Notes: a model not told the origin generated them from the letters alone. A stretch of 38,283 nt of DNA from an uncultured Cytophagales bacterium (GCA_964350605.1 CAYGKP010000002.1:1-38283); one strand, 5' to 3'; shown: positions 3 through 21,598, counted from the first letter of the stretch. Made by a program: numbers and translations.

Positions 3-959
3 TATACCCATACCAACCCGCTCTATTGCCAAATCCAGCTAATGAGAATGACCAAGCACTGGCATGAGGATACCATCACTTGGAATATGTTCTATGGAAG
101 CGGGGCTGGCCAACTAAATTATCCTGTAGAAATTGATCCAACGATTGTTGCGGATGGTCCAACGACTACAACGGGTGACCAGCACGTCGATGTGACAAGA
201 ATCGTCCGTGATCTGGTTGCCTTGCCAGATAGTATGCGTCATGGATTCCACATCAAGCTCCGGGATAATCCAACTTGGCCAAGCAGGAACGTGTATTGGG
301 AGAAAGACCCCAGGTTGGTAATCAAATACATGGTCTCGGAGCCTGTTTGCGACAAATGGGAAGGAGATTGCGGATACTTGAGCTCTATCACCCGAGATGG
401 TAGCGTGGGAATTGGTACAGTGCCTACTGACACTTTCCATGTGGCAGGAGGCAATGCCAGATTTGAAGAAAGCGTCAAGGTTGAGGATTCTCTTGGGGTA
501 GGCACCCTGTCACCCCAAGAGCGGTTTCATGTCGCATCAGGGGCGAATGCATTGGTGGACGATACCCTCTTTGTTGCTCACAGACTGATTGTTGGTGATT
601 TGACGAACACAGCGTATCCCGAAGCGCTGCTTTCAGTTGATGGGCTTTTGATTGCCAAACAGCTTCGAAGCACCCCCCAGGCTTGGGCTGATTATGTGTT
701 CGGGGAGGAGTATCAATTGATGGAGTTGGATTCGCTTCGTTCGTTTATCGAAGAAAATGGTCATTTGCCTGGGATTCCATCAGAGAAAGAAGTGCTATCA
801 AACGGCATAGAGCATGCGGAGATGGATGCAGCACTTCTAGGGAAAATCGAAGAATTGACCCTTTACATTCTCGAGCAAGAGAATCTCTATCGCAAAGAGA
901 TCAGCGAGATGAGGCAAGAGCTCCAAGAGCTCCGCCAACTGATCGACTCTGACAACTAG
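3..959 (+). CDS. Tail-fibre-like surface protein with C-terminal coiled coil; probably 5'-truncated by the window edge
   Basis: The frame is open from nt 3 with no stop before the first ATG at 42, so the gene likely starts upstream. The N-terminal segment 'WHEDTITWN...HIKLRDN' looks like a beta-sandwich. A tail-fibre-type motif occurs twice (GIGTVPTDTFHVAGG / GVGTLSPQERFHVASG). The C-terminal module 'WADYVFGEEYQLMELDSLRSFIEENGHLPGIPSEKEV...KIEELTLYILEQE' plus a heptad-rich tail matches something I recognise from many uncharacterised Bacteroidota proteins. Confidence 0.7.
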   Translation, partial: YTHTNPLYCQIQLMRMTKHWHEDTITWNMFYGSGAGQLNYPVEIDPTIVADGPTTTTGDQHVDVTRIVRDLVALPDSMRHGFHIKLRDNPTWPSRNVYWEKDPRLVIKYMVSEPVCDKWEGDCGYLSSITRDGSVGIGTVPTDTFHVAGGNARFEESVKVEDSLGVGTLSPQERFHVASGANALVDDTLFVAHRLIVGDLTNTAYPEALLSVDGLLIAKQLRSTPQAWADYVFGEEYQLMELDSLRSFIEENGHLPGIPSEKEVLSNGIEHAEMDAALLGKIEELTLYILEQENLYRKEISEMRQELQELRQLIDSDN

Positions 960-964: not shown

Positions 965-1708
965 ATGTTTCGGCTCGGAATTTTTCTTGTGTTGGTAGCG
1001 TGCCGGGCAGCAATTGCATCGGCTCAAACCGCCTATTGGATTGCCACTTCTTCTCCTTCGAATTGGAGCAACCCTGCTAACTGGTCAACTGAGAAGGTGC
1101 CCTGCATTGAGGATTCGGTGGTTTTCAACAGTGGCTCTACTCACAGTTGCATTGTCGACTATGCGGTTGGCATTCGCGCGTTAACGATCGAGTCGAGTTA
1201 CACAGGAGTTACGGCTAGCATTCTTGTATCGAATCCTTACAGCTTCTTCGTTGCCGGGACATTCCTACAGGAAGGCGGCAGCTTCATTAGCGCCACGGGA
1301 GGCAGAATCGAGGTTGAGGGTGACTTCGCCTCGATTGGCGGTGACTTTTTCACAGATACTTCACGGTTTGCAGCACCGATCCCGATTCCGGCTTTCTACA
1401 ATTGTACGTCACCGTTTGCTCTATTGAGCCGACAATTAGGGGGCGGCTACCACATCACCCGAGGGGGGTACCTAGCCTTCAAATACGTGGAACGATACAA
1501 TCCCGGAGTGCTTCGCTATGCGATTTATGACAAGCAGTACAATAAGCTTTCGACGGTGCCTTCTCTCACCAAAGAACTCGGCTCGAACTATTACGAGTTG
1601 AATCTGAACGGCCTTGCAGATGAACGAGAGTTCTATGTCTTAGAAGTCCTCAATGAGAAAGGAGACCGTGAGGTGCTCAGATTCCAATTCAGAGTAGAGC
1701 CCAACTAG
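965..1708 (+). CDS. Secreted hypothetical protein (Sec signal peptide)
   Basis: 247-aa ORF starting 5 nt after the previous stop. The N-terminus MFRLGIFLVLVACRAAIASAQ is a typical signal peptide. The 'NWSNPANWS...VP..DSVVF' motif resembles the N-termini of secreted adhesin-like proteins. I recognise no catalytic motif. Confidence 0.7.
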   Translation: MFRLGIFLVLVACRAAIASAQTAYWIATSSPSNWSNPANWSTEKVPCIEDSVVFNSGSTHSCIVDYAVGIRALTIESSYTGVTASILVSNPYSFFVAGTFLQEGGSFISATGGRIEVEGDFASIGGDFFTDTSRFAAPIPIPAFYNCTSPFALLSRQLGGGYHITRGGYLAFKYVERYNPGVLRYAIYDKQYNKLSTVPSLTKELGSNYYELNLNGLADEREFYVLEVLNEKGDREVLRFQFRVEPN

Positions 1709-1710
1709 TG

Positions 1711-2235
1711 ATGAATCAGCGGTTTTTATCACTTACTACGCTGGCCATTGCATTAGTTGCTTTGGGCTTTTCCTTGTACGGGTTTTTGGGTGACAGTAAA
1801 GCAGAACCTGCCTCGACTGTCTATCTAGATAATCAGAGGGTGTTCTCGCAATTCGCGGCAACCAAAGAGGCCCAAAAGGAGCTAAACTCGCTTCAGCTCC
1901 GCCAGCAGTACATCCTGGACTCTTTGGCCGTCCAGATAAAGGCGATGCAGTCAAGCTCGGAGCCAAATGGAAGGGATTTGACCTTCCAGCAGGAATACTA
2001 TCAGAAAGTCTTAATGGACTTTCAGACCGCCTATGCCGAGAAGGACCGGGAGTCTTCGGCTCAAATCTGGGGTCGACTAAACGAGTACATTTATCAGTTT
2101 GGGAGAGATAACGGCTACCAGTACATTTTTGGAGCCAATGGATCGGGTACAATCATGTACGCTGATTCACTTCAAAATGTGACAGACCAAGTGATTGAGT
2201 TTGTCAACCAACGCTATGAGGGCTATGAAGAATAG
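1711..2235 (+). CDS. OmpH/Skp-like periplasmic chaperone (operon-embedded paralog)
   Basis: The ATG at 1711 follows the upstream TAG (1706-1708); the track's GTG at 1708 is an alternative start. There is an N-terminal hydrophobic anchor. The layout is OmpH-like: 'VYLDNQRVF..F..TKEAQKEL' followed by a long Q/E/K-rich helical arm. The C-terminal segment is 'GYQYIFGANGSGTIMYADSLQNVTDQVIEFVNQRY'. Confidence 0.65.
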   Translation: MNQRFLSLTTLAIALVALGFSLYGFLGDSKAEPASTVYLDNQRVFSQFAATKEAQKELNSLQLRQQYILDSLAVQIKAMQSSSEPNGRDLTFQQEYYQKVLMDFQTAYAEKDRESSAQIWGRLNEYIYQFGRDNGYQYIFGANGSGTIMYADSLQNVTDQVIEFVNQRYEGYEE

Positions 2236-2773
2236 AAGCCTTGCGTTAGTTGGACTGCTGCTAAGCGCATTCTTGCTGGGATCTTGCGAACCAGGAAAGA
2301 TTGACTTGCGTGATGCACAAGAGTGGTCCGCTGAAAATGTTGAGGTGCTGGATCGAGAGAGCGAGGTGAGTAACTACCTGATCTCCTCCAAGTTCAAGCC
2401 TTGGTCAGAGGGAAGCGCCGGAGAGATGTTGTCGTTTCGCGATGGTGTTTACCAGTTTGAATTGACCTTCAAAAGGCGCAATGCGTCGGCGAACGAGTTT
2501 CGCTCGGACGACTACTACTTTCTCTTCGACCTACAGCAGGACATCGAGTTGAAGGTGGGCGAGCAGACCTACCCATGCACCATGTACCACATGCAAAGAG
2601 ACTATGGCTTGACTGGCTATAGTACCATTCACGTGGGCTTCGATCTGGGTGGCCCGCAAGAGGGTGACATGCAACTGATCATTACGCCTCGCCCTTTGCA
2701 AATCGGCTCAGTGAAGCTGGTTTACACCAAGGAGGACATGGCCAAAATCCCTGATTTAAAGAGCAATTCATGA
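2225..2773 (+). CDS. Lipoprotein, function unknown
   Basis: The ORF opens at 2195, but the ATG at 2225 gives MKNRSLALVGLLLSAFLLGSC, a signal peptide plus lipobox. It overlaps the upstream stop by 11 nt. Its own stop overlaps the next start in ATGA at 2770-2773. Confidence 0.7.
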   Translation: MKNRSLALVGLLLSAFLLGSCEPGKIDLRDAQEWSAENVEVLDRESEVSNYLISSKFKPWSEGSAGEMLSFRDGVYQFELTFKRRNASANEFRSDDYYFLFDLQQDIELKVGEQTYPCTMYHMQRDYGLTGYSTIHVGFDLGGPQEGDMQLIITPRPLQIGSVKLVYTKEDMAKIPDLKSNS

Positions 2774-5700
2774 AGCTGATACGTCGCAACCTTCGGTTGA
2801 TGGCCGCCTTTTTGGTGGTAGAGCTTCTGGGTGAAATGTTGGCACCTCAGATGGTGATGGCGTTGACCTCCGGGCCGACACAGCCGGAGGTGACCTCGTT
2901 TGAGCCGGTAGGCACCACAGAAATGGTGGACCTGTTTTCGGGAGACTTCACCTACAACGTGCCCTTGTTTGAATTACCTGGTCCGAACGGGGGGTACCCG
3001 TTCAACTTGGCCTATCACGGTGGGGTCACGATGGATCAGGAAGCCAGTTGGGTCGGCTTGGGTTGGTCGCTAAACCCAGGGGCGATCAATCGCCAGATGC
3101 GAGGGTTGCCCGATGACTTTAAGGAAGATACAATCAAAACCAAGTTTTCGATGAAGCCCCAAACGACAGTCGGGGTGAGTGCAGGTGTTGGGGTAGAGGC
3201 ATTCGGAAGTGATTTGTCGGGCTTGTATGCAGGAGGCAGCCTTGACTTACAGATCTACTACAATAACTACAAGGGGATCGGTTATTCGCTGGGCATTACG
3301 CCCAGCCTCGGCTATGGGTTTGGGGACGGCACGCCAGGTGTTGATGATTTTCTGGGTCTTGGGGTGAGTCTGTCTTTTGACTCTCAGGAAGGAGTTGGCG
3401 TTTCGCCAAGACTTTCTTTCAGTGGACAGCAGAAGAATGCGTACCGATCGTATTCAATCGGGTTTGATGTAAACTCACAAGATGGACTAGTTGGCCTTTC
3501 GCTTGGCACCACTGCCTCAAACACTGCGACTAGTAAGGACTCTGATTCACCCAGTTGGGCTAAAGGCTCAGGGTCTTACTCTTCTTCCTACAGCTTTGCT
3601 GCCATTGCCAAGACCCCTACGGTGAAAATGCCGATGGGAGGATGGAGTGCCAAATTGAACTTCGCTTTTGGGTTGGCCAACTTTGGCACATATCCGTACG
3701 GACGTGTAGGAGGTACTTTTTCCATTCAGCGACCCCAAAAGAGTGCTGTGAGCAAGCGTGCTTTCGGCTACCTGTACCTGCAGGACGATACGGATAACAA
3801 AGGCCTTTTGGACTTCGACCGCGAGAAAGACGGGGTAGTCTCGAAGGCGAGCCCGAATCTTGCCGTTCCTGTTTTGACCAACGATGTGTACTCGGTCACA
3901 GGGCAAGGGATGGCAGCGATGTACCGCCCCTATAGATCGGACATAGGCCGCATCAACGACCCGAGAGAAACTTCATTTACTGGCGGCGGTTCTTTGGGCT
4001 TGGAGTTTGGTGTTGGGCTAGGGGGGCATTTTGGCGGAGACCTTCAGATCTTCAGTCATTCGAGCAAGAGCGGGGTTTGGGAGACGGACCTTCACGAGTC
4101 GGATGTGGATTTCCAGGCCTGGAAGCCAGGTAGCCTCTTTGAGCCAGTGTACTTCCAGGCGTATGGTGAGCACAGCACTGATCCACTTAACGAATTGGAT
4201 CATATTGGCGGAACGACTGCCATGCGTCCACGGCTTGATAAATCAGGTTTGGCCTGGAAGGCCGAAAAGAAAATGGAACGTGGCTCGGGGGGAATCATCA
4301 CCCTGGCCCAGGGCCCTAAAGTGGTCAACGAGGAGAGGGCACCCCGATCAAAAGCCATCCAGCACTTCACCAATGAGCAGTTGGGCGGGGCGGAACTCGC
4401 TTTGCCCTTGTTTTCTGTTCCGTACAAGAACGAATCTGGTACCAAGAACTACTTAGACAGGGGCGATTACAAAAAGCACCACATCGGGGGCTACCAAGTG
4501 GTCAATGAGGAAGGGTTGCGCTATGTCTATGGCTTGCCTGCGTACAACAACAAGCAAGTTGAATGTCTTTTTTCGCTAGACCCCGGCACCAACAATCCTG
4601 GACCGATTACCACCAACTTCGGGGAGAAGAATGGCGAACCCAACTATGATGTCAAGCGCACCGATAAGTTCTACCAGCGCACCGAAACGCCCAGGTATGC
4701 ACATGCTTATTTACTAACCTCAATCGTTGGGGCAGATTACGTCGACGCTGATTACGATCCTGCCGAACCAGCAACCTGGGGTCCTTCAGAGGGTGATCAT
4801 GGGTATTGGGTGCGCTTCAACTACCAGCGCATGTCGACCGACTATAAGTGGCGTGCGCCGCTTTACGGCGCCAATTACATCCAAGGATACCGCACCACCC
4901 GAGGAGATGACAAAGGGTCATATGTGTATGGCGAAAAGGAGCTTTGGTACCTCGAATCAGTTGAGACCAGCTCACACATTGCTGTATTTCACACCTCTGC
5001 CCGCGAGGACGCACACGGCGCATCGAAGGAAGTAGCAACCTCAAGCTCTGATATTGACATGAGCAAGCACAGCTTCCGTTTGGACAGCGTTGAGCTCTTT
5101 TCAAAGAGAGCCCGTGAAGCTGATCAAGCTCCCATCAAGGTTGTGCACTTCAAGTACGACTATACACTTTGTAACGGAGTGCAGAACTGGACGGATCAGA
5201 ATGGTATTACCGATGGTACTGGTAAGCTCACGTTGCGCAAGCTTTACTTCACCTACGGTCAGAGCAATCGAGGCAAGCTGAGTCCCTACCAGTTTGGCTA
5301 TGGCAATGAAAACCCAGACTACAGCAGCCACCAATACGATCGCTGGGGAGGGTATCACCGCCTCGATTCCCTGGGGCATGGCAACTGGAATGCCCTGGAT
5401 TTCCCTTACACAGTTCAGTATTCCACTCTAGGGCCCGAAAGCCTCAAAGACAGTTTAGATAAGTACGCGGGTGCCTGGTCTTTGAAACAGATCACCCTGC
5501 CTTCGGGTGGCAAGATTGACGTCGAGTACGAGGCGGACGATTACGCCTTTGTCCAAGACAAGCCGGCCATGCAGATGATGAACGTATGGGTAGACAAATC
5601 CGACGGGAATGGGCCCGGCTCCAGAATCGTCCAGGGGAGACGCCGACTTTACTTCGAGTTGGAAAGTTCGCTATCAGCGGATGCGGGAGATGCTGAGCGA

Positions 5701-8700
5701 CTCAAGGAGGTCAACAAATACCTACGGGGCGTTGATCAGGTGTATTTCAGGGCACTGATGACGTTGAGGGAGGATGGCGACTTCCCAGAGGAGTACATAT
5801 CTGGGTACGCGAAGGTGAACCCCGACCAGACGAAGCGAGGCCTTTGGAGGGCTGGGGGCAGCGGCGTTTACACCCATGGCTACTTTGATGTAGAGCCTAT
5901 GAAAGGGAGTAAGGGGCGCAAGTACCATCCCTTCTCCTCTGGTGCTTGGCAGCATTTGCGCAGCGAACAGCCGTTGTATGCAAACCTAGGTGGTCGTTTG
6001 TACGGCGATGGTCAAGAGGATGAAGGCGAGAAGCTCAACAAGGCCCGCATCAACTCATTGATTGGCGCTATTCCAAACGCCATCAAAATGTTCAAGGACT
6101 TCAACGAGATCGCCAAGAATCGAGACTGGGGTGTGGACATCAAGCCCGAGCAGTCCTGGATTCGACTTTCGTGCCCCGACCAAATCAAGTACGGTGGAGG
6201 CCATCGTGTTCGTTCGATTGTGCTCACAGATGCATGGGATGAGATGACTGGCCAACAGTCTTCAAAGCAAGGTCAGTATTATGACTACACCATGGTCGAG
6301 CGGGGCAATGTGATCAGCAGTGGGGTGGCGACTTACGAGCCAATGGTGGGTGGCGATGAAAATCCTTTCCGACGGGGCAAAGAATACAGTGAGAGTAAGC
6401 TGCTGAAGACGAACAACAACTTGTTCTTCGAGATGCCAGTGAACGAGTCCTACTTTCCGGGTGCCACGGTTGGCTATCGGAAAGTGACTGTCAAGACACT
6501 CACCTCGCATCGGTTGGGGCTTCCACCGGAGGATGCTCAGAATTTGCCTACATCGGTTTCCGGCACAGGCGCCACCGTTCATGAGTTCTACACCGCCAAG
6601 GAGTTCCCGGTCATAGTCCAGGAGACGGCCATGAACGCCAAGCCTGACAAACCGTTCTTTTTCGGGATTCCCTTTGTGGGCTCGGTTAAGATCACAGGAC
6701 TTGCGGCCTCGCAGGGCTACAGCGTCGAGCTGAATGACATGCACGGCAAGCCCAAGCAGGTGAGTCACTACGCGCAGCGAAGCGATGGCACGATCTCCAA
6801 TGCACCGGTGAGCTACAGCAAGTACAACTACTTGTTCGAACAGGAGTTTTTGTCGGGCGATAGTTTGAATGTGCGCTATCGGCTCACCAACAAGGTGATG
6901 ACCCTTACGGGTGAGTATGTCAACGGTCAGGCGCAGAAGGAGGAGCGTCTGATGGGCGTTGACTACGAGTTCTTCTCTGACTTACGAGAGAACAAGGATG
7001 TGTCGACCAATACGCAGATCGGCCTGGGGGTTGATATCATTCCCGCGTTGTTTTTCCCGATTCCTATCCCCAGTGCGTGGCCTACTACGCATTATCAGGC
7101 AACCACGCTGCGCACCGCTGTGACCAATAAGGTCATCCATCGCTCGGGGATCATGACGGGCATGGAGGTGTACGACCGTGGGTCGCTAGTCAGGAGCGAG
7201 TACAAGTTGTTTGACGCCCTGACAGGGCGCCCGGTACTGACCGAGACGACTAACAACTACGACGCGCCGATTTACTCCTATAGCATGCCCGCGCACCTGA
7301 TTTATGATGGCATGGGACCAGCCTACAAGAACATTGGGTTGACTTTCACCGAAGATGTCTCGCCAGTCTCAAACAAGCCGGGCTACTATGCCATAACACC
7401 TGGCGTGGGAGCTACTTGGCAGAACCACCTGGTGCCAGGTGACGAGTTTGTGGTAAGCAAAGGAGGAGCACCGGTAGCCACTGGGCAGAAGAATGTTCGG
7501 GCAATCTATGAGGGGAAAAATGGATCAAACGATCCTGTATTCTTGTTTGAAGACGCCTTGTCATCCGAGGAAGATCTCAACTTCTTTCTCACCCGTTCGG
7601 GCCGCCGAAATCACCTTTCGGTCGATGTGCAGAGTGTAGTAGCGATGGAGGACCCGACTTCTGAAAGAGTAGAAGAATCGTGTACTACTCAAGTTGTTTT
7701 CCCAATTATTGATGGTGAGCGAGCCTATTTGAGCACGCTCCCGTCTGAAATTGCGCGCACGGTCAATGGAATAATGAATGCCTACAGGAATGAGAATATT
7801 GTAGACTGTGGGTGTGTAGACTCAACTGGGATTTGCAGCGGTTGTGATACGATTTACCCTGAAATTCTTTACCGTTTTACGGGACTTTTTCCGCCAGTTG
7901 ATTCTTTACTGCCAACACCACCAACCTATTATTGGTTGGCTAAGCTGAACAGTGAAAGCCACCACCAATACCAAAACGAATTCTATCCTCTGAGTCCTGA
8001 TTATCAGTACATACCCGTGATCTTAAGCTGCGAAGCTCTCGGAGATGATTGTGATGTATTCCCGGATGGTATTTTTTGGGATGATAAGCTGCACAAAGAC
8101 ACAGCTGCTTTCAATGTATCGCTAATGTCTAGCTTTGATTCCGTAATGAGTCGCTGGGTTTATGTCAATCGAGGAGGTGTTCTATTTGGGGGTAACAGTA
8201 TTCCAGAGGACTATGTGGAACGGCGGGCTGGAGGTGGTCCCATTCATCAAGACTTCGCAGTTTTCTTCGATGCAACTGATGGTAGAATTATACCGGTTTG
8301 GGAGATAGACAGCTTGTATGATCCATGGATCCCCAGGGACATGGGTTGTGGCATCAATACATACGATTCTACCTGTTATGCGTCCCTAGGTTATAATCAT
8401 GGACCACAGTCTAATTGGGGAGGGGAGGGAGTTCATTATAGAATGATTAAAACCAACGGCGACACGATTATCGCATTGCATGCGATTTCAGGGATCCCAT
8501 GGCGAACGTATTGGGAAACGGGTCCTTACCTGACATTAGACACAACAGATGTGGTTTCATCGGCGTACCTGGTTGATGACATCCTCTCTATCTCTGCGAC
8601 AACGTTTGATGATGCACATCCGCTGGATTTTGCTTCGCTGGACACGACCCAGCAGGTCAAGGCAGAGTTAGGCGACCGCCCGTTTTATCACTGGTCGACG

Positions 8701-10035
8701 GGGGAGAAGGGCACCTGGCGACCCGACGCGAGCTATACGTACGTGGATGCCCGCAGCCAAACCCCGGGCATGAACCTGAGCGTGGACGGGACGATGGATG
8801 ATGTTCCACTCTTCAACTTTGACGATCAACTGTTTACTCAATGCTACCCCAAGTGGCGACAGGTCAACACGATTACCGAGTACAGCCCCTTCAGCTTCGA
8901 ACTGGAGAACAAGGACATCTTGGATCGGTACTCTGCGGCACTTTACGGCTATGATGGGCAGCTCACCACTGCTGTGGCTGCCAATGCGCGCAACCGCGAG
9001 ATCGGCTACGAGGGCTTCGAGGAGTACACGGTTGGCCAAGCACTCGGTGTCGATAACCTTATGACTGGCAACCTGGATTTCCTGAGCCAGAGCCCTGGGG
9101 CTGTCAATCTGGAATCTTGGCAGAGCTTCGAAGTTCTCTCGGGCAATGACAGCCTGCTGATCCTGCCGATTCCCTACTCCTCAGCCGAAGGAATCGAACA
9201 GATCAAAGTAGCTGGTGCAAAGCTGGGCTCCGGCACCGAGAAGACGATTTGGGGTCAGTATGATGTCAGTTACATCGCCGAGCACCCCACTGATCCCCTC
9301 AAGAGCATTTGGGTACTCTCTGGCTTTGGCCATTCGGGTCTTTGGGCTGGACAAGCTTGGGTTCCTCAGTTAACCCCTGCTGACTTCAGTGTAAACGCTG
9401 GCGGCGGTGTTGGCATTTCAACTGTGGGTGCCCACACCGGGACAAACAGTTTGCGAGTAGCCACGTCAGTAAGCGTGCCTCAAAGCCGACTCTGGCCGCA
9501 AGCCGGTCAGCGTTACGTGGTGAGTGCCTGGATGCGTCCGGAGAGTGCCACTAGCCAGTTTATGGGCTACTCACAAGGAGTCACTGGTTATGTGGGCAAC
9601 GCACCAGCCTCAGTGACTTCAGGTGCGAAGGTGAATGTCTACGCATCGGACGGGGCAGCCCAGACTTGGACATTGATCGGCACGATCTCGCCAACAGGCG
9701 GGGTGGTAGAAGGATGGCAGCGCGTCGAAGGTGAGTTTGACATGCCTGCTGGTTACTCCAGAATCAGATTGGAGTTGGTTAGCCCCCAGATTGACGGGCA
9801 GTTTGCTGCCTCGCTGTGGGATGACATGCGAGTATTGCCTTCCGATGCGTCGATGCGAACCTACGTATACGACACCGAGACCCTCCGACTTTCGGCCACT
9901 CTTGACGACCAGAACTTCGCTACGCTGTACTTCTACAATGAGGCAGGGCAGTTATACCTCACGCAGAAGGAGACTTCCTCGGGGATTCGCACGATCCAGC
10001 AGTCGCGCGTTCACATGAAAGAAACCAACGAATAG
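2770..10035 (+). CDS. Giant (2,421 aa) secreted or anchored protein with SpvB/TcB-like N-terminal signature, Gly-rich beta region, Cys-rich insert, CBM-like beta-sandwich and terminal YD-like repeats
   Basis: Uninterrupted 7.3-kb ORF with a hydrophobic N-terminus. 'FSGDFTYNVPLFELPGPNGGYPFNLAYHGG...WVGLGWSLNPGAINRQMRGLPDDF' parallels the SpvB/TcB N-terminal signature (..LPLP..GRGg..P.L.L.Y.S...GLGW....I.R.T..G.P.Y). 'GTNSLRV...GQRYVVSAWMRPES...GWQRVEGEF...LWDDMRVLP' looks like a CBM4_9-type sandwich. The C-terminal 'YVYDTETLRLSATLDDQNFATLYFYNEAGQLYLTQKE' is YD-repeat-like. Confidence 0.88.
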   Translation: MKLIRRNLRLMAAFLVVELLGEMLAPQMVMALTSGPTQPEVTSFEPVGTTEMVDLFSGDFTYNVPLFELPGPNGGYPFNLAYHGGVTMDQEASWVGLGWSLNPGAINRQMRGLPDDFKEDTIKTKFSMKPQTTVGVSAGVGVEAFGSDLSGLYAGGSLDLQIYYNNYKGIGYSLGITPSLGYGFGDGTPGVDDFLGLGVSLSFDSQEGVGVSPRLSFSGQQKNAYRSYSIGFDVNSQDGLVGLSLGTTASNTATSKDSDSPSWAKGSGSYSSSYSFAAIAKTPTVKMPMGGWSAKLNFAFGLANFGTYPYGRVGGTFSIQRPQKSAVSKRAFGYLYLQDDTDNKGLLDFDREKDGVVSKASPNLAVPVLTNDVYSVTGQGMAAMYRPYRSDIGRINDPRETSFTGGGSLGLEFGVGLGGHFGGDLQIFSHSSKSGVWETDLHESDVDFQAWKPGSLFEPVYFQAYGEHSTDPLNELDHIGGTTAMRPRLDKSGLAWKAEKKMERGSGGIITLAQGPKVVNEERAPRSKAIQHFTNEQLGGAELALPLFSVPYKNESGTKNYLDRGDYKKHHIGGYQVVNEEGLRYVYGLPAYNNKQVECLFSLDPGTNNPGPITTNFGEKNGEPNYDVKRTDKFYQRTETPRYAHAYLLTSIVGADYVDADYDPAEPATWGPSEGDHGYWVRFNYQRMSTDYKWRAPLYGANYIQGYRTTRGDDKGSYVYGEKELWYLESVETSSHIAVFHTSAREDAHGASKEVATSSSDIDMSKHSFRLDSVELFSKRAREADQAPIKVVHFKYDYTLCNGVQNWTDQNGITDGTGKLTLRKLYFTYGQSNRGKLSPYQFGYGNENPDYSSHQYDRWGGYHRLDSLGHGNWNALDFPYTVQYSTLGPESLKDSLDKYAGAWSLKQITLPSGGKIDVEYEADDYAFVQDKPAMQMMNVWVDKSDGNGPGSRIVQGRRRLYFELESSLSADAGDAERLKEVNKYLRGVDQVYFRALMTLREDGDFPEEYISGYAKVNPDQTKRGLWRAGGSGVYTHGYFDVEPMKGSKGRKYHPFSSGAWQHLRSEQPLYANLGGRLYGDGQEDEGEKLNKARINSLIGAIPNAIKMFKDFNEIAKNRDWGVDIKPEQSWIRLSCPDQIKYGGGHRVRSIVLTDAWDEMTGQQSSKQGQYYDYTMVERGNVISSGVATYEPMVGGDENPFRRGKEYSESKLLKTNNNLFFEMPVNESYFPGATVGYRKVTVKTLTSHRLGLPPEDAQNLPTSVSGTGATVHEFYTAKEFPVIVQETAMNAKPDKPFFFGIPFVGSVKITGLAASQGYSVELNDMHGKPKQVSHYAQRSDGTISNAPVSYSKYNYLFEQEFLSGDSLNVRYRLTNKVMTLTGEYVNGQAQKEERLMGVDYEFFSDLRENKDVSTNTQIGLGVDIIPALFFPIPIPSAWPTTHYQATTLRTAVTNKVIHRSGIMTGMEVYDRGSLVRSEYKLFDALTGRPVLTETTNNYDAPIYSYSMPAHLIYDGMGPAYKNIGLTFTEDVSPVSNKPGYYAITPGVGATWQNHLVPGDEFVVSKGGAPVATGQKNVRAIYEGKNGSNDPVFLFEDALSSEEDLNFFLTRSGRRNHLSVDVQSVVAMEDPTSERVEESCTTQVVFPIIDGERAYLSTLPSEIARTVNGIMNAYRNENIVDCGCVDSTGICSGCDTIYPEILYRFTGLFPPVDSLLPTPPTYYWLAKLNSESHHQYQNEFYPLSPDYQYIPVILSCEALGDDCDVFPDGIFWDDKLHKDTAAFNVSLMSSFDSVMSRWVYVNRGGVLFGGNSIPEDYVERRAGGGPIHQDFAVFFDATDGRIIPVWEIDSLYDPWIPRDMGCGINTYDSTCYASLGYNHGPQSNWGGEGVHYRMIKTNGDTIIALHAISGIPWRTYWETGPYLTLDTTDVVSSAYLVDDILSISATTFDDAHPLDFASLDTTQQVKAELGDRPFYHWSTGEKGTWRPDASYTYVDARSQTPGMNLSVDGTMDDVPLFNFDDQLFTQCYPKWRQVNTITEYSPFSFELENKDILDRYSAALYGYDGQLTTAVAANARNREIGYEGFEEYTVGQALGVDNLMTGNLDFLSQSPGAVNLESWQSFEVLSGNDSLLILPIPYSSAEGIEQIKVAGAKLGSGTEKTIWGQYDVSYIAEHPTDPLKSIWVLSGFGHSGLWAGQAWVPQLTPADFSVNAGGGVGISTVGAHTGTNSLRVATSVSVPQSRLWPQAGQRYVVSAWMRPESATSQFMGYSQGVTGYVGNAPASVTSGAKVNVYASDGAAQTWTLIGTISPTGGVVEGWQRVEGEFDMPAGYSRIRLELVSPQIDGQFAASLWDDMRVLPSDASMRTYVYDTETLRLSATLDDQNFATLYFYNEAGQLYLTQKETSSGIRTIQQSRVHMKETNE

Positions 10036-10045: not shown

Positions 10046-10741
10046 GTGAAGCGGCTAGTGATACAACAGGTTCTTTCTTTGGCGCTCTTCGCGGTGCCAG
10101 CGATATCTCACGCTCAGGACCTCCGAGCTGATTTGCAAGCTGCTTCGGATTGGTATAGCCGGACTAGTGGCTTCAGAGTGGACGGGCGAGTAAAAATGCT
10201 GGATGGTTCTGGTGTAGATCAATCTTTTATTCTTGTCCGCTCGGGCAATTCGATTTACACCAAGTTTTTCGGCTCCGAAGTATTGCTCAATGAGCAAGCA
10301 ATGATTTTGGCCGAGCCACTGAACCAAACAGTCGTCTATCAACCACTTAAGCCAGGGGAGTTCGAGAGGCAGCTTCGCAAACGAAAGTTAGAGTTGGTGG
10401 ACACCTCCATGCTGGCTGCTACAAACTATTCGGTTTCGTATTTGGGTGAGAGCAGCGGGCTTAAAACCTATGAACTCACGTATGTCTCTGGCGCGATCTC
10501 CAAGGCTTGGCTTTCGTTTCGCTCCAGCGACTCGTTTCTCACCAAGGTCGAGTACTCGACGGCCCCGGCGGTATCAGGCGGTCGAGCCTCTAAAGTGATC
10601 ATCAGCTACAGTTCGTCTGCTTTGTCAGCCACGGACGCGATGCTGCTCAATCGATCGAGAATCCTTACTGGAAGCGGTGGGGCAGTGGAGTTGGCACCAG
10701 CATACAGTGGTCACCATCTAATTGTTGCCAGCAATGAATAG
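10046..10741 (+). CDS. Small secreted protein between the two giant genes (possible adaptor/chaperone)
   Basis: GTG start 10 nt after the giant gene's stop. The signal peptide is (M)KRLVIQQVLSLALFAVPAISHAQ. The protein is 231 aa with a beta-rich composition. Its stop overlaps the RHS start (ATGAATAG, 10734-10741). Confidence 0.7.
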   Translation: MKRLVIQQVLSLALFAVPAISHAQDLRADLQAASDWYSRTSGFRVDGRVKMLDGSGVDQSFILVRSGNSIYTKFFGSEVLLNEQAMILAEPLNQTVVYQPLKPGEFERQLRKRKLELVDTSMLAATNYSVSYLGESSGLKTYELTYVSGAISKAWLSFRSSDSFLTKVEYSTAPAVSGGRASKVIISYSSSALSATDAMLLNRSRILTGSGGAVELAPAYSGHHLIVASNE

Positions 10742-13700
10742 GGCTCGCGCTATCCTACTGATGTTATCTGCGCTCGGGCTACAGCTCGCAGCGAAAGCAC
10801 AATCCTTGGACTACGGAGTTTCCTACCGACTCAGTAGCTCGCAGATTAGCGGATCATCAATGCTCAAGGCAGTCGAGCCTGTATTGGGTGAGGGCGAACT
10901 CTCTTCGCAAGGATATGATGTGATGGTACAGTTGCGTTATGAACGCACCTATGGCTTGGATATCGAAGCGGTAGCTTGGTGGAAGCAAGTGATTTATGTG
11001 GTGCGCTTTTATGATGAGACTGAGCTCTTGATCCGAGAGGATCAAGACACCCTTAAGCTAGACCACTCTGGCTCAGGCTTTAATTTTTCACCTGTTAATC
11101 TGTACCGTTCGGTTTCACGCCATGCTGAGCTTGAAATCCTTTCGACCAGTTCGCTTGGCAACCCGCCGCCGGATATCAATCTGGAGTTGGTGTTTTCTCC
11201 CCAGTATGAGCGAGCGGGAACGCTCACTGCGCCTGAGTTATTTGTTGACGGATCGGACTCTATCGTGAGTTGGAGTTATGTGATTGGTAGCGAAGGTTTC
11301 GAATTGGAGTGGGTGTTCATTGATTCAGAACACGAGTCTTTGGAAGTCATTAATTCTTCTAATGCGTTTGATTGGATTCGCCCTGTGCGCTTGGTTAGCG
11401 AGGAACAGCACCATTTCTTCAATGAGGCCCTGCCTGCAGGGACGGTGTATTTCCGGGTCAGGGGCCTCCGTGATGAATCGCAACAAGGTGAACGCGGTGT
11501 GTTGCAGGGGCCCTGGTCGAATGTGGCAAGTCTTGTGGTTTCGCCGGGTACGATGCTAACGGGCATCAACTGGCAGTCGGTGGTGAGTTATGCGGAACAT
11601 GGCCGCTCGAAGACATTGGTAACCTATTATGACGGTAGTCTACGCAACCGCCAAAGCGTTACTTCGTTGAGTACCGATTCGTTGACACTGGTTTCCGAGT
11701 CGGTTTATGATTATGAGAGCAGGCCCAGCATCAGCCTGATTCCCACACCCATGCAGGGAAGTCAGCTGTCGTTTCGACAGGGTGTTCATGCCTTTGAAGG
11801 CACAGAACCGGAGAACGAACGCCTTTATGACCGATACGACGGATCTGCACCGCTGAGCACGACCTCTAAAGTGGAATCGTATTATGGTGGGCAGTCTGGC
11901 ATTGAACAACTGAATGCCGATTTGCTGCCCCAATCAGAGGGTTATGCCTATGCCCAGACGGTATTCACCCCTGACGCAACGGGGAGGGTCGAGCGCCAAT
12001 CTATGCCCGGTGCACGCTTGAAGATCAACAGTGATGATGCGCCATTGGACAGCCTTCACTACACGCGCTTCTACTATGGTAAGCCAAGTTCAACCGAACT
12101 GCATCGTCTGTTTGGTTCGAATGTGGGTCTCTCCAAGCACTACACTAAGGAGTATGCGGTCGATCCAGATGGCCAAGTGAGCCTCACCTACAAGGACCAA
12201 GAGGATCGCGTGATTGCAACTGCGTTGACTGGTGAGGCGCCTGACAATCGTTTGCCGCTGGCCAGCTACCAGCCTGAGCTGAGCACCTTCAACTTGGATT
12301 CAGACAATCAGATCAATAACCTCACGGGTGTTTCGCATTCGGAAAGCAAGATTGTTAAAACCACTCCAGGCGATCAGCGCTACTATTTCTACTACGACTT
12401 GGAAGGTGTGATTCCCTCAGGGAATTCGGCGCTTCCTACCCTTTGTCGCACGTGTGGCTACTCGCTTCACATTCACATCGAAGACCCAGATGGTAAGGTT
12501 GTCTACGACACGTTGCGAGTGTTCCCTGCTACCCCCGAAGATCCCAATTGCGGGGTGGATACCGCTTTCACCCGAGAGCATAACTTTGACACTTTGTTCA
12601 CCAAGGTTGGAGAGTACACGGTCTCAAAGACTCTGTACCTGAATGAAGAAGAGATCTTTTCCACCTTCAGAGAGGTCCGTGAAAGTGCTGCAGTTGCACT
12701 TGATTCAGCGGGGCTCGTCGAGTCTTTTCTTGACCAACTCAATCCTTCACTTTGTGATGTTACCTGTGAGCAACACTGTTTGACCAAGGTCTATCGGGAC
12801 AACCCCACTTGGGACCCTCAATCTAGTTTGTGGGATAGCTTAGATCATTCTCAGCAGGTTGATAGCTTACTATTGGTCTGTGTAGAGGACACTTGCTACG
12901 GGGTGTTAGACTCCATCTTTGCCGAGGTAAGCGAGGCAGAATGCGAGGGAATGGAGGGCGCCATGTTGGGTCAACTCTACCCCGATGGGTATTGGAATAG
13001 CGAGGAACTTCATACAGCTGATGGCCATACACCTGTCTATTGGGCCAAATTAGATGGCGCTGTTTTTCTTGATTCTGTGGGCAACGTGCTGAGTCCTTCG
13101 CCACCGGATGCGAGTTTTTACGATTGGGACAAGTTTGTCCCTTCTTGGGCAGAGGAGTTGTTGCCTTATCATCCAGAATATTGCATTCATCAGAAGAGTT
13201 GCCTGCAAGCCGTGCCAGCCAAGGATTTTGCCCGCGAATTGATGCAGGTCAAATCGAAGTCGGCAGCCATTTTCAAGAACTATGATGAGATCAACGCGCT
13301 GCTCAACGCTGATGATTTCTTCAGCAACTCTAGCGCTTTGGGCTGGGGGAAACGTGGGGATATGGTCGACTACATGACCAGCTTCGTCGATGAGGATGAG
13401 TATGACACTGACTACAATGGTGACGGATATGAGGACAGCACCTTCACGATGTGGCGGTTTTTCGAGTTGGACTATCTCTACGAACTCTCTGACCCGGCCT
13501 TGCCACATAACTCCGCGACAGAGTGGGATATGTTCCGCGCGGCGTATTTGGCTTACCGTGAGGAGTTGTTGCAAGAGATTGTTGAGGATGAGGTCGCCTC
13601 AAATTCAGGCTGCGCATTCCAGAGCGGGGAGCATGCCCTCTTTCCCCAGCCTGCTTTTCCTAAGTCAGAGTCAGAGATCGATTCATTGTACCAACTCGAC

Positions 13701-16700
13701 ACAACTGGACAATGCGCCGAGCAGTGTGAGTTGAACGTACAAATCTGGATGCAGGCGCTCTTTGATAACGGTTGTTCGGACGGTGATTCCAGCTATTTCA
13801 CCACAGCTGATTCACTGACCATTGCTTCCAACCTGTTGTCCTTTTGTATGGATAGCTGCGATGCGTCAGGATTCTTGTCAGGAGCCCTTTGGCTTGATGA
13901 TAGTCTCTCAAGTGATTTAAGAATTGATTCAGTGATTACAGTTCTTTCAGGTTACCCTTGTGGCTGGTCTGACATAGGGACTGACCGTGATTTTTTCTGT
14001 TCGGGTCACACCCGGGAGTTAACATTCACAACGTATCAAGTCATTGATGCAATAAACGACATCGCAGCAGCGAGACGAGACTCCTCCGCAATCTATTCTT
14101 ACAGTACCTATTCGGGATTGGACACAGTGTTTTCCAACCATGTCTATGGTAACTGGGACCCATACAGCATTGTATGGAAATCATTCCTAGTGCCTACTAG
14201 CGAGATCCATAACTATGATCCACTGACAACTCTTTGCCCTGGAGTTGACAGTATAAGTCTAGTTGTTTACGATAAAGAAGATGTGACATATCCTTGGTGG
14301 TATACCTGTAGTGCAGATGCAAGTATGAGCGAGTATGAGTATCGATTACTTTTCTACTTTGATTCATTAGAAGCTAAGTATTATGAAATCAATTTTGTTG
14401 GCAGCAACCCCCAATGCCTAGCGGGGAGCAATCACTGCATACAGATAAGGTTTTTTACGCAGGATGCGCTTGGCTGCCATTACATTCCCAGAGATAGTAT
14501 TGTGGGAGTGAGGAATCCCAGAATTGACTTTGGATGTGAAGGTCGTCCTCCATGTCAAAGTGGTGAAGGGTTTCATTTGCACGATAGCAATTGGGACTGG
14601 GATAATCAGAGTGCTTCGTGCATTCTAACGGATGTAGAGCTTTCGAATGGCCAGATTATTACCACATATGTAACCACCACTGGATATGGTTATTGGGGTC
14701 AGCTTGATGTAAAGACAGATCAACTTGAGGTATCATTGGATACTTGTATCTTCAACGAAGAGAATTTTTCGTATCATTTGGATTGGCAAGCAACGCGAGA
14801 CTCCTGCATTTCTCAACAGCGAGAAGACTTGCTGCAAGAAGCTGAGGCTGCCTGGCAGGATACACTTCGAATTTGGAGTTCTGATTACGTTGAAGAGCAT
14901 TTTCGCTCGTGCATGAACGAACCTTTTGATGAGAGCTTCTACTACACAACAGAAGCCGGGGACTACCACTACACCCTCTACTACTACGACCAAGCAGGCA
15001 GTCTGACCCAAACGGTTCCGCCGGAGGGTGTGGATGTTTTGGGTAGTTCGGCTTTCAACACAAAAGGCGAGTACCAATTCTCGGTTGAGCCCAACCATCG
15101 CCTCAAGACGATCTATCGCTACAACAGCCTGGGCCAGTTGACCTACCAGAAAACCCCCGATGGCGGCGAAACGCGCTTCTGGTACGACAAGGCCGGCCAG
15201 CTGCGCCTCTCGCAGAACGCGAAGCAGGCGACTGAGGATCACTTCTCCTACACCAAGTACGACTTGCAAGGCCGCGTGGAGGAGGTTGGTCTGCTTGATG
15301 GCCTAGCCCTCGACTCGACGGCTCTGAGCGCGTATACGCCTGCCGTGTATGCCCTGTTGGACAACTACTCCTTCCCAGAGGAGCCGACTTATGCACTCAG
15401 CGAGCAGACGATTACCCATTACGACGATCCCTTTGGTGGCCTGATCGCGCAGAAGTATTTGCGCAACCGCGTCTCTGCTGTGGAGGTGTTCGACCACACG
15501 AGCACGCTGGTGAGCACGACGGCCTACAGCTACAACCCGCACGGCCATGTGGACCGCGTGGGGGTGAAGGTGGGCGATCTGCCGACGAAGGTGACCGAGT
15601 ATGACTTCGACCTGATCAGCGGGAACGTGAACGAAGTGCGCTATCAGCCGGGCGAGGCGGACCGCTTCTATCACCGCTACGAGTACGACGCGGACAATCG
15701 GATCGAGGCGGTGTATACCTCCAGAGACGGGTACATTTGGGACCGGGAGGCGCGGTATTTCTACTACGCGCACGGGCCGCTGGCAAGGGTCGAGATTGGG
15801 GAGTACAACGTGCAGGCGCTTGATTATGCGTACACGCTGCAGGGCTGGATCAAGGCGGTGAACATGCCGGGTGCATTGAGCGAGGAGACGGATGGGTTCA
15901 GCCGCGATGAGTTCGGGTATGCGCTGGGGTATTATGAGGGGGACTATACCCCGGCGGGCGCGGTGAACATGGGCAGCGCAAGCCAAGCGAATTTGTGGAC
16001 GGGCAACCCGGCGGGGCAGGTGCTGGGCGACGGACTGTTCACCGGGAACATTGCCTTCATGAACACGGACATCCGCCAGTATGACAGCATTCCAGGGGTG
16101 ACCGGGAAGGGCAACAAGCTGATGGCGTATCAGTATGACCAGTTGAACCGGTTGCGGCAGGGTACGTCGTTCAATGACTACACGGGCAGCTGGAGCACGT
16201 TGACGGGCGACCAGGGCGACATGGCGGCCACCTACGACGGGATGGGCAACATCTTGAGCCTGACGCGTGGGAATGGCGACAACTTCAGTTACAACTACAA
16301 CCGCGACGGGTCGAGCGAGCTGGTGAACAACAAGCTGCGGGGTGTGGGTGGACTGCATGGCAGCAACGCGACTAGCAACTACAGCTACGATGAGATTGGG
16401 AACCTGACTGCCGATGCGAGCGACACAATGCAGGTGGAGTGGACCGTATATGGTAAGGTAGCCAAGATCACTACGCCCGGCTCGACCACCGAATTCACCT
16501 ATGACGGCGCGGGCGAACGCGTTTCGAAAACCGTGACCAAACCTTCGGGTACGGTGAAAACCCAGTACGTCCGCGATGCCGCTGGCCAGCTTCTCTCGGT
16601 CTATATCGACGGTGTTCAGGAAGAGGTTCCGCTATACGGTTCGTCGAGACTCGGCGTTTGGAACCCGATGGCCCTGCGCGACACTTCCCATTTCACGGCC

Positions 16701-17930: not shown

Positions 17931-18661
17931 TACTCGTAACATTTGTTGGTTTCTTGTTTAGTGGATGTGTCTCACCAAAGATTGAATCATTGACCTATCT
18001 ATCTGGTGACAGTGTATCTACATTAAGGGCTGGCATGCCGGCTATCGTACTATTGAGAACATCAGGTCTAGGTAAAAAGAGAGCCTCGGTCTCTTTTACT
18101 CGTTTGCCCAGAAAGCCTGTAATGGAGCTGTATTCTAGTGATCACGAGGTCTTAGTAGAATCTTCTGAGGGAATGTTGCCGATTATTCACGATGAAGAAG
18201 CAGGAGACACCCTATTCCTCAAGTCATCAAGCGGAAACGAAGTCTACGACTATTACCTGTTTTTCACTCTCCCTCGCGTTCAACAACCTTATCTATCGCT
18301 ATCTGTTGACAGCACCAGATCGTTTAATGGTGAAAAGGGCTTCATTACGAGATCTGATTACCTCAGCTTGAACGGAAAACTATCTTTTGACTACGATAAG
18401 ACGCTACAGGACCAATGCCCGAACATGTACTTCAACTTGAAATCGGTTAAGGTTTCGTTCAAGGATAATTTGAAAGTTGAGTTTGCTGATTTCAGGGTGA
18501 ACGATCTTAATAATACATTTAGCTGTGACGTTTCCTACCTATCTAGCTTCTTGCTTAAAGAGAAAACAAGATTTACGTTCTACGTAGAGTATAAGGTCGT
18601 CCTTGACTGCGGCTATGAATACACTCACACAGAGATGCTGCACGCTACATATTTCCCATAA
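17915..18661 (+). CDS. Lipoprotein, putative cognate immunity protein
   Basis: The start overlaps the RHS stop by 16 nt. MVRAIVLVTFVGFLFSGC is a signal peptide plus lipobox. It shares the toxin tip's low GC and sits in the canonical position immediately 3' of a polymorphic toxin. Confidence 0.65.
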   Translation: MVRAIVLVTFVGFLFSGCVSPKIESLTYLSGDSVSTLRAGMPAIVLLRTSGLGKKRASVSFTRLPRKPVMELYSSDHEVLVESSEGMLPIIHDEEAGDTLFLKSSSGNEVYDYYLFFTLPRVQQPYLSLSVDSTRSFNGEKGFITRSDYLSLNGKLSFDYDKTLQDQCPNMYFNLKSVKVSFKDNLKVEFADFRVNDLNNTFSCDVSYLSSFLLKEKTRFTFYVEYKVVLDCGYEYTHTEMLHATYFP

Positions 18662-18665
18662 TCCT

Positions 18666-18779
18666 ACTATCTCGCATTTTTCTGCCAAGCAGGGAGAGAA
18701 AAGCTATGAGCTTTCCAATCACTTGGGAGTAGGGGAAGATCACGGAGTGCCAGGATCACTTCTACGCTCGCAAAACTGA
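18666..18779 (+). pseudogene. Orphan RHS-core remnant (degraded, internally deleted)
   Basis: It starts right after the immunity gene's stop. The frame reads TISHFSAKQGEKSYELSNHLGVGEDHGVPGSLLRSQN*. A second short patch at 18745-18770 (gagtgccaggatcacttctacgctcg) resembles the 'SVQDYYPYGS' coding DNA at 16829-16859 (gagtgtccaggattactacccctacggctcg), but with indels. There is no start codon and no intact downstream toxin ORF. Confidence 0.65.
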
Positions 18780-18975
18780 TTCAACTGATCTTTCGATCAC
18801 TTCCGCAGCAATCATTCAATGTTTGCGTACGCATCCCCAAAAGATGCGTAGGGAATGGTAGGCCTCACCCCATCTTTCCCCTAGAAAACTGATTCCAGAC
18901 GTAGATTTCCAATCTTTACGAACGCGTCCGTAGTGTTTTAGCCACACTCATCGCCTCTTCATCGTCTCATTGGTC

Positions 18976-18995
18976 TTGTGTACAGATTGTGTACA
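18976..18995. repeat. Tandem TTGTGTACA-GA-TTGTGTACA, each copy containing the palindrome TGTACA
   Basis: Read directly as ggtc-ttgtgtaca-ga-ttgtgtaca-c-gacc. It lies in the noncoding gap about 190 nt upstream of the 19187 ORF. Function is unknown; it could be an operator-like site. Confidence 0.5.
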
Positions 18996-19186
18996 CGACC
19001 GAATCAATGGAGGAAATCGTTTCCAATGAATATTTGGTACATGAATCACTAGACACATGGTATCATTCGGCATCCATGAAATCTCATAGCATTTCATTTG
19101 CTACATTGGTTGTGCAGTGGTCCTGATGGGGTCGCAAATTTTGTTGGGGTGATTGTCTATCTTAATGCATGAGCTGATCGAGAAAG

Positions 19187-19618
19187 ATGGACTACACTAA
19201 GCTTGTTCGATTCGTAATTCTATCGCTTCTATTCTTTTCGTGCACTAAGAATAACGCTTCATACGTAAGAGTTAAGCACTGTGAATTGGAGTCTGGAAAT
19301 GTTCTGGGAGATGGAGCATATTTTGCAAGAATTAGTTATCCATCATCTAGTATAGATACTTTATCACTCCAGTTGTTTTCCGATCGCCTGGACACGATTA
19401 GTATTAGGTGTTATTCTGGAATGAATTTACCGTGTGCCATTGGATTCCAGGGAGTTAATAAAGAGAGGATTGCAGTTTTGATAAACTCAGATGAGGTCAT
19501 ACCATTTATCCTGGATGAAGAGTTTAGGAATATTCGTCTTCACTTTTATCCGGATGCGGGGAGTATCAAGTGTAATGTTGTGGCCTATGATAGGAATTGT
19601 ATTTCCCCGAGATATTAA
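19187..19618 (+). CDS. Small lipoprotein, possible orphan immunity protein
   Basis: MDYTKLVRFVILSLLFFSC is a signal peptide plus lipobox. The protein is 143 aa. It has very low GC like the toxin/immunity island and lies downstream of the RHS-core remnant. Confidence 0.55.
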   Translation: MDYTKLVRFVILSLLFFSCTKNNASYVRVKHCELESGNVLGDGAYFARISYPSSSIDTLSLQLFSDRLDTISIRCYSGMNLPCAIGFQGVNKERIAVLINSDEVIPFILDEEFRNIRLHFYPDAGSIKCNVVAYDRNCISPRY

Positions 19619-19789
19619 CTCTTTAAGATTTTTAATAAGTGCGGCGCATCACAAAGCCGGATAATCGGCCCCAAGTAGCCCCGCCCGACAACTAAACTGA
19701 CCCTTCCTGTCGATAGAACCGCCGAAGTCGGTACCTTCGCGCCGGATTCAACCTGCGCCAGTACACGCGCGCCCTTTCTCGCTCCCTAC

Positions 19790-21598
<1,809 letters not shown>

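Follow-up and report, generated by a model that had tools for sequence, protein, structure and literature searches.

RHS toxins are known to exit Gram-negative cells by type VI secretion or in the form of Tc complexes, and to our knowledge it is not established how the many RHS proteins of Bacteroidota that carry a Sec signal cross the outer membrane. This question is raised by a locus in DNA from an uncultured Cytophagales bacterium (GCA_964350605.1 CAYGKP010000002.1:1-38283), which was analysed over its whole length of 38,283 nucleotides (nt; hereafter the window, to which all coordinates refer). An open reading frame (ORF) with an ATG start at 2770..10035 on the plus strand, present as a first-pass annotation of this DNA had described it, encodes a protein of 2,421 amino acids (aa), nicknamed 'BIG' and called here the giant protein. 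Its gene stands in an operon with the order Skp-like chaperone, small lipoprotein, giant protein, LolA3, RHS toxin and immunity gene. Because the gene is locked in this operon, we infer that its product is the outer-membrane component of a self-contained RHS apparatus. The explanation towards which we lean, with modest confidence, is that the giant protein is exported by Sec, is anchored in the outer membrane by a beta-barrel and would take part in exporting, displaying or holding the RHS toxin.

The first-pass annotation had quoted nine strand peptides at about 3150-3760 and read them as strands of a membrane barrel and not of a TcB propeller. All nine were found, at aa 128-331, a segment containing 16% Gly and 15% Ser as compared to 10% and 8% in the whole protein. 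An AlphaFold model of aa 1-1200 (45 sequences; predicted local distance difference test, pLDDT, 71; predicted template modelling score, pTM, 0.70) showed long antiparallel strands between residues 118 and 436. In a model focused on aa 30-480, strands of 12-18 residues were obtained, most of them at pLDDT 80-96, with the head of the protein and residues 350-395 at pLDDT < 50. When both models were compared with the PDB by Foldseek, nearly all of the top 50 matches were outer-membrane barrels, with probabilities up to 0.95. They included FimD usher, LptD, FadL, CymA, BrkA, intimin, OmpG, OmpW, NanC, KdgM, FapF and the designed 10-strand TMB10, the beta-domains of BrkA and intimin being among the best neighbours. 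The viral structure library BFVD gave the same outer-membrane-barrel picture, and no TcB, TcC, RHS or teneurin structure was found among the Foldseek neighbours of aa 1-1200.

We also analyzed the residue pattern of these strands in 97 relatives. A strict alternation of hydrophobic and small polar residues was observed in DSSP strands 2-8, 10, 13 and 14 and, since it is kept position by position in the 97 homologues, it is not due to chance. The hydrophobic face consisted to 85% of AVLIFMWY (L 24%, V 18%, I 12%, F 11%, A 9%, Y 7%) with almost no charge, and the opposite face to 77% of Gly, Ser, Asn and Thr (G 32%, S 24%, N 14%, T 7%), with a few conserved charges (E143, D175, D204, K299, D412 and H420 in the query). 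Aromatic residues were located at both rims, 6-8 residues apart, with an aliphatic centre (Y163/Y164, Y172, Y234 and F316/Y317 at one rim; F180, F228, F298 and F308 at the other). Such a pair of aromatic girdles flanking an aliphatic belt classically marks a membrane barrel. For residues 120-340, we rejected both a TcB propeller and an RHS shell, given this inside-out residue pattern and the lack of any such structure among the Foldseek neighbours.

Coevolution was investigated by mean-field direct-coupling analysis of 197 and then 288 N-terminal sequences. The dominant antiparallel ladder paired residues 136-145 with 306-315 (i+j = 451, z = 9.5); it was repeated with the 288 sequences, extended in the same register to 117-126 with 325-334, and accounted for 8 of the top 70 couplings. 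The wall strands were assigned as A (116-145), B (152-165), C (169-184), D (191-204), E (208-221), F (224-235), G (239-253), H (264-275), I (289-302) and J (306-336), and further hairpins were seen for A-B, C-D, D-E, G-H and I-J. Because coevolution pairs A with J, DSSP strands 1 and 2, as well as 11 and 12, are taken as two long kinked strands, and the 14 strands defined by DSSP most likely represent a 10-stranded barrel plus an extra hairpin. A 14-strand barrel was ruled out by the direct pairing of 116-145 with 306-336. The extra element is a long amphipathic hairpin at aa 398-436 (3961..4077), indicated by AlphaFold, by the residue pattern and by coevolution (398-415 with 419-436, z = 5.2), whose couplings to the wall strands were scattered; coupling tests for a hairpin in the lumen or a plug on the barrel mouth gave weak signals, with an enrichment of just 0.4-1.7 fold. 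Collectively, AlphaFold, Foldseek, the residue pattern and the coevolutionary closure all agree with the barrel reading of the first-pass annotation. Residues 116-336 (3115..3777) very probably form a closed 10-stranded antiparallel transmembrane beta-barrel by which the giant protein very probably sits in the outer membrane.

We examined the genetic context of 82 related loci, of which a single one does not carry a Bacteroidota label. An RHS gene was found downstream of the giant gene, on the same strand and within 6 kb, in 69/69 loci that could be judged. A LolA3-family gene lay immediately downstream in 63/71 loci, a lipoprotein gene immediately upstream in 63/75, and an OmpH/Skp-like gene upstream in at least 44/75. 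Gene order was identical in Cytophaga hutchinsonii and in a metagenome-assembled genome (MAG). In the window, all genes of the operon are encoded on the plus strand. The Skp/OmpH-like periplasmic chaperone paralogue (1708..2235, 175 aa), already recognised in the first reading of the sequence, matched Pfam OmpH with E = 4.2e-15. It is followed by a small putative lipoprotein of 192 aa with a lipobox-like LLGSC (2195..2773), whose stop codon is overlapped by the ATG of the giant gene by 4 nt, an arrangement that suggests translational coupling. Downstream are a LolA3-family LolA-like periplasmic protein of 231 aa (10046..10741), assigned by NCBIfam and synteny, and an RHS polymorphic toxin of 2,402 aa (10722..17930) with DUF6443, RHS repeats, a Rhs-associated core at aa 2041-2122 and a variable C-terminus, both proteins bearing Sec signal peptides. 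The next gene (17915..18661, 248 aa) is, by its position after the toxin gene, the putative cognate immunity gene. PDB searches with the LolA3 and lipoprotein sequences gave no match, and the lipoprotein had no Pfam match either.

The RHS partners were conserved up to the Rhs core, where conservation ended. In a Fulvivirga locus (L008, RHS gene 18156-25661), a PT-HINT pretoxin domain (E = 4.7e-22) replaces the C-terminal region found in the window, which identifies these partners as polymorphic toxins. The LolA3 assignment was strengthened by the syntenic genes: the window gene scored 34.6 bits against LolA3_fam (NCBIfam), below the cut-off, whereas the gene at the same position exceeded the cut-off in 6/8 other loci, reaching up to 222 bits in Flavobacterium loci. 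LolA3 genes between the giant and RHS genes are exemplified by loci L008, L024, L038, L048, L061, L068 and L078. A second, longer OmpH/Skp gene (22492-23241, minus strand, 249 aa, OmpH E = 1.4e-27) is located ~20 kb away from the operon copy, so that the latter is an extra, probably dedicated paralogue.

The segment preceding the barrel, aa 40-117 (2887..3120), is the most conserved stretch of the giant protein, and couplings inside it indicate a folded unit. Its motif (aa 52-116) matched DUF6531 (PF20148) at 17.8-20.6 bits in the query (E = 4e-3 to 5.9e-4; gathering score 24.1 bits), and matches were obtained in 16/21 relatives at E <= 0.01 and in 22/27 at E <= 1 (best 2.4e-6). SpvB (PF03534) was matched by the query motif with E = 0.24 (11 bits, cut-off 22) and by 23/27 relatives (best 1.4e-5), covering profile positions 4-66 of 287 only. 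Pfam searches of the giant protein revealed no full SpvB domain, no TcdB mid domains, no FG-GAP-type beta-propeller and no RHS shell. The SpvB/TcB-like head proposed in the first-pass annotation is thus a real motif as far as the first ~60 SpvB positions go, and its TcB part has to be dropped.

In a search of PDB sequences with the profile of the head motif, one weak match was found, to residues 387-446 of mosquito SGS1 (E = 0.08). SGS1 carries beta-propeller 1 at residues 1-344, beta-propeller 2 at 705-1216 and a Tc-like Rhs/YD shell (PMC9935623); as the matched residues lie between both propellers, they are probably near the start of that shell. In Tse5, DUF6531 is the N-terminal plug which caps the cocoon and anchors the N-terminal peptide (PMC10684867). 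By these sequence likenesses, the head of the giant protein resembles the N-terminal plug or the first strands of RHS/Tc cocoons, and the giant protein is not a TcB. The RHS partners do not carry the DUF6531 head motif, which is compatible with a plug acting in trans.

The N-terminus of the giant protein (aa 1-31, 2770..2862) has the features of a Sec signal peptide: a basic N-region, a hydrophobic segment predicted as helix at aa 2-24, and a VMA-L site with a sequence-inferred cleavage after VMA31. The segment (A)LTSGPxQPEV (aa 31-42, nt 2860-2895), which would form the mature N-terminus, is nearly invariant across the family. By analogy with the N-terminal peptide of Tse5 that is held by the Rhs plug, this suggests a recognition or anchoring role. 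No type IX C-terminal sorting domain (TIGR04183 / Por_Secre_tail) was found in the giant protein or in the RHS partner in NCBIfam and Pfam searches.

Beyond the barrel, a conserved insert at aa 337-397 (3778..3960) contains a small hairpin (368-377 with 381-390) and was modelled with low AlphaFold confidence. The amphipathic hairpin is followed by a conserved core at aa 437-1640 (4078..7689), whose part at aa 530-1200 was predicted with pLDDT mostly 70-93 (means of 10-residue blocks); when aa 1-1200 were searched by Foldseek in the PDB and BFVD, no neighbour was found for core residues 437-1200. A Cys-rich region at aa 1641-1934 (7690..8571) varies by lineage, and a conserved C-terminal module occupies aa 1935-2421 (8572..10032). 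Neither the whole protein nor five segments of it gave a significant Pfam or NCBIfam match. The whole sequence had no significant match in the PDB, and a search of PDB sequences with the family profile also returned none.

The C-terminal module holds a CBM4_9-like sandwich and a YD-like tail. In the query, CBM_4_9 (PF02018) matched aa 2280-2338 (9607-9783) with E = 0.03 and 15 bits (gathering score 25.9 bits), and 11/21 aligned relatives matched it too, with a best E-value of 3.5e-11. The sandwich that had been predicted at the C-terminus, weak in the query alone, was therefore supported through relatives by hidden Markov model (HMM) scan. The YD-like tail at aa 2350-2421 (9817-10032) is a conserved terminal module: the last 72 residues gave 76 significant matches, all of them extreme C-termini of the giant family or of split C-terminal genes. 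Its consensus, YVYDxxxxRLxAxLDxNNxATxYxYDxxGxLxLxKKET, reads as two YD repeats, as had been suggested before, and the motif YxYDxxGxL can be recognised in it on inspection. The statistics behind that reading were weak, with no match of the query and a match of one in 21 relatives (1.5e-5) to Pfam RHS_repeat (PF05593/TIGR01643), and with weak hits only (i-E >= 0.15) of the tail HMM to the RHS repeats of the partner itself. The YD assignment is thus a weakly supported resemblance at the level of pattern.

Among 5.8 billion proteins searched, relatives forming more than 3,842 clusters at 90% identity were found, with no functional name among the matches listed. Named sources were Bacteroidota (Cytophaga hutchinsonii CHU_3209, Fulvivirgaceae, Flavobacteriales and Cytophagaceae). 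The N-terminal module (aa 30-480) formed 6,514 clusters at 50% identity and was located at protein positions ~30-490 in all of the best 150 representatives. In a collection with one genome per species, at least 574 matching stretches were detected; 79 of the 80 listed were labelled Bacteroidota, and these belonged to Cytophagales, Flavobacteriales, Chitinophagales, Sphingobacteriales, Saprospiraceae and some Bacteroidales, together with one MAG labelled Hydrocarboniphaga. The family has no Pfam family of its own and no solved structure was found; a literature search found no description of the family or the operon. The published TANFOR toxin system was considered and is unrelated to the present one.

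Two size classes were observed, of ~1,600 aa and of 2,150-2,450 aa, and along the query residues 1-1640 are kept, 1641-1934 are variable and 1935-2421 are kept again. In about half of the relatives, those of the short class, the gene is split near the variable region and the C-terminal module is encoded by a separate downstream gene. In the 38 split loci, this second gene mostly has its own Sec-type signal peptide and ends in the same YD-like tail; examples are L003 14754-17633 and L008 14842-17370.

Two accessory ORFs on the plus strand precede the Skp-like gene. The one at 42..959 (305 aa) has no Pfam match, and its last ~100 aa (LPGIPS followed by a coiled-coil-like part) are 46-48% identical to two tandem upstream paralogues in related operons (L001 5662-8233 and L003 5655-8256). 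The one at 965..1708 (247 aa) has a signal-peptide-like start and was found upstream in 40/73 loci. Directly after the RHS gene, GC content falls to 0.45 (18001-20000). The 248-aa ORF at 17915-18661 gave no significant Pfam match and no homologue in the 82 loci by phmmer and a seeded HMM search, and the 143-aa ORF at 19187-19618 likewise gave no significant Pfam match and no homologue in these loci by phmmer alone. Low-GC ORFs that lack relatives are as expected for a swappable immunity/orphan cassette. The flanks (24721-37718 and 19790-21598) encode bipA, alternative complex III (multihaem cytochrome c, Fe-S subunit, NrfD-like protein and ActD) and the cytochrome c oxidase genes COX2, COX1 and CtaA; with such housekeeping genes on its flanks, the operon is chromosomal, with no obvious mobile element.

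The system resembles barrel-anchored giant proteins and RHS toxin systems, yet it fits none of the defining families tested. Type V secretion, and in particular the inverse autotransporters (type Ve: intimin, invasin), shares with it the Sec signal, an N-terminal outer-membrane barrel, a very large C-terminal region and an operon without an ATPase or inner-membrane component, and a dependence on a periplasmic chaperone (Skp) is plausible here too. However, type Ve proteins combine a 12-strand beta-domain with a passenger of immunoglobulin (Ig)-like repeats, whereas the giant protein has ~10 wall strands and no Ig-like repeats. Moreover, the distal module of its family is separate and has a signal peptide in half of the relatives, and the giant gene is accompanied by genes for an obligatory RHS partner and a LolA-like protein. 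No sequence match to the Pfam families of autotransporters, intimin or Omp85 was found in the giant protein. Two-partner secretion with contact-dependent inhibition (CDI; CdiB/CdiA) likewise links an outer-membrane barrel protein genetically with an immunity gene and a giant polymorphic toxin that depends on Sec. In contrast to the present locus, it uses POTRA domains and a 16-strand Omp85 barrel, neither of which was found here with Pfam and NCBIfam, and its toxin is a beta-helical filament and not an RHS cocoon; here, the barrel protein is itself giant.

Regarding RHS systems, Tc (ABC) toxins are alike in that the head motif recalls the first ~60 SpvB positions and the start of the Tc-like shell of SGS1, and in that a giant protein is paired with an RHS cocoon protein bearing a Rhs-associated core and a variable toxin; the CBM-like decoration also resembles that of SGS1 (PMC9935623). 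They differ in that the giant protein is without the full SpvB, TcdB mid domains, beta-propeller and RHS shell, in that Tc toxins are assembled in the cytoplasm whereas the present components carry Sec signals, and in having an alpha-helical TcA channel instead of a beta-barrel. Type VI Rhs effectors (Tse5, RhsA, Rhs1) share the weak but recurrent DUF6531 matches in the head. Unlike in those effectors, the plug-like domain of the giant protein precedes a membrane barrel and not a YD shell, the RHS shell resides on a separate, DUF6531-free protein, and there is no PAAR/VgrG context.

The analysis shows the ORF, its family, the synteny, the signal peptides and the residue patterns; the barrel is a prediction, and the outer-membrane location, the partnership with the RHS protein and the functional roles are inferences. 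According to the explanation we favour, the apparatus, having no ATPase, would rely on Sec, periplasmic chaperones and the beta-barrel assembly machinery (BAM), following the logic of type V secretion. In the periplasm, the Skp paralogue would prevent the barrel segment from folding, and BAM would insert the barrel as an integral outer-membrane anchor, with the aliphatic belt and the two aromatic girdles outside and a lumen lined by Gly, Ser and Asn. LolA3 may carry the lipoprotein of the operon or another hydrophobic element. The head and all downstream domains would exit the barrel on the same face, with the plug-like head and the YD-like tail as the likeliest contacts with the RHS cocoon and the CBM-like domain binding glycan. 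A bolder version, which we regard as rather doubtful, is that the giant barrel protein, the lipoprotein, LolA3 and Skp constitute an unrecognised Sec-dependent outer-membrane system of Bacteroidota for secreting or delivering RHS toxins, that is, a new type of secretion system. In it, the plug-like domain fused to the barrel would couple the RHS cocoon in trans, as a beta-barrel counterpart of the TcA-TcB junction.

Several observations weigh against the favoured explanation. No Foldseek match was significant (best E = 0.006; target-normalised TM-score <= 0.46), and AlphaFold and coevolution draw on overlapping information, which makes them partly dependent lines of evidence. A Skp-like gene could be detected in just 59% of loci. 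A barrel of 10 strands is too narrow for a folded or even a hairpin polypeptide; a role as anchor is more likely than one as channel, and the barrel alone would not account for a passage of the RHS protein across the outer membrane. Because the separate C-terminal modules of split loci have their own signal peptide, they are not covalent passengers, and a picture of one barrel with one passenger is not general. The topology is a further difficulty. The head, the 337-397 insert and the chain beyond it all lie on one face of the barrel, as do the conserved H-I loop and the tight, conserved turns (N165..G169, D204..G208 and N235..G239); variable loops and the Lys/Arg-rich G-H hairpin lie on the other. 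In outer-membrane proteins, tight conserved turns are as a rule periplasmic and variable, Lys/Arg-rich loops are external. By this rule, head and giant domain would both be periplasmic here, except if part of the chain passed through the lumen. On the experimental side, our literature search found no report on the localisation of CHU_3209 or any relative. LolA3 corresponds to Fjoh_0605 of Flavobacterium johnsoniae, to which, as far as the available text of a 2025 study of LolA proteins goes, no function or deletion phenotype is assigned (PMC11885536). In that text, deletion of lolA3 left gliding and type IX secretion unaffected, the phenotypes described did not include antagonism, and the operon context of LolA3 was not mentioned (PMC11885536).

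The same topology, together with the Sec signal as the only export signal on every operon product (no type IX C-terminal domain) and the signal peptides of the split C-terminal modules, would fit a docking platform that faces the periplasm. There, the barrel would be an anchor, while head, core and C-terminal module would bind or store the Sec-exported RHS cocoon until its release through outer-membrane vesicles, lysis or another exporter. We consider this arrangement, its release routes included, unlikely: CBM-like domains and a Cys-rich region that evolves fast are seen more typically in proteins exposed on the surface and, by analogy, argue for such exposure here, and a toxin stored in the periplasm would have no evident route to its target. 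In addition, F. johnsoniae proteins encoded beside LolA3 were reportedly detected in culture fluid (Kharade and McBride 2015). A membrane-independent alternative is that the 10-stranded barrel is soluble, with its hydrophobic face turned inward as in fatty-acid-binding or GFP-like proteins, in which case the giant protein would be an RHS accessory that is soluble, either in the periplasm or after secretion. A rough estimate of volumes suggests that ~47 hydrophobic side chains are just enough to fill a 10-strand barrel as high as this one, GFP-like barrels appeared among the weak Foldseek matches, and the analyses made do not directly tell which face points inward. Nevertheless, a face composed largely of Gly (32%), Ser (24%) and Asn (14%) and carrying very few charges would then be exposed, an atypical surface for a soluble protein, and the aromatics at both rims around an aliphatic centre are the signature of a membrane barrel. 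The high-probability Foldseek matches were all outer-membrane barrels and a dedicated Skp paralogue is co-encoded, so a soluble barrel seems to us quite improbable.

A Tc-like translocator, released together with the RHS cocoon and inserting its barrel into the target membrane as a beta-barrel analogue of TcA, with the head coupling cocoon and channel, is to our mind very improbable. The likeness of the head to the start of Tc/RHS shells, a size of ~2,400 aa with a receptor-binding-like CBM domain, as in TcA, and the obligatory linkage to an RHS cocoon protein would suit it. On the other hand, insertion would require Lys/Arg-rich loops of 7-16 residues to pass through the target membrane, a 10-strand barrel is narrow as a monomer, no exit route from the producer cell is apparent in the operon, and its genes for Skp, the lipoprotein and LolA suggest assembly within the envelope of the producer itself.

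The outer-membrane component of an RHS apparatus therefore remains the role that we favour for the giant protein, whose family is a concrete candidate for the passage of Sec-signal RHS proteins across the outer membrane. For the orphan LolA3, the family provides a genomic setting and a role that can be tested. It would also add a new kind of giant outer-membrane protein, one whose barrel and core have no sequence match in the PDB. Since orthologues occur in genetically tractable species, namely C. hutchinsonii (CHU_3209) and Flavobacterium species, these hypotheses are directly testable, and the giant protein may prove to be the core of an undescribed machine for the export or display of toxins.

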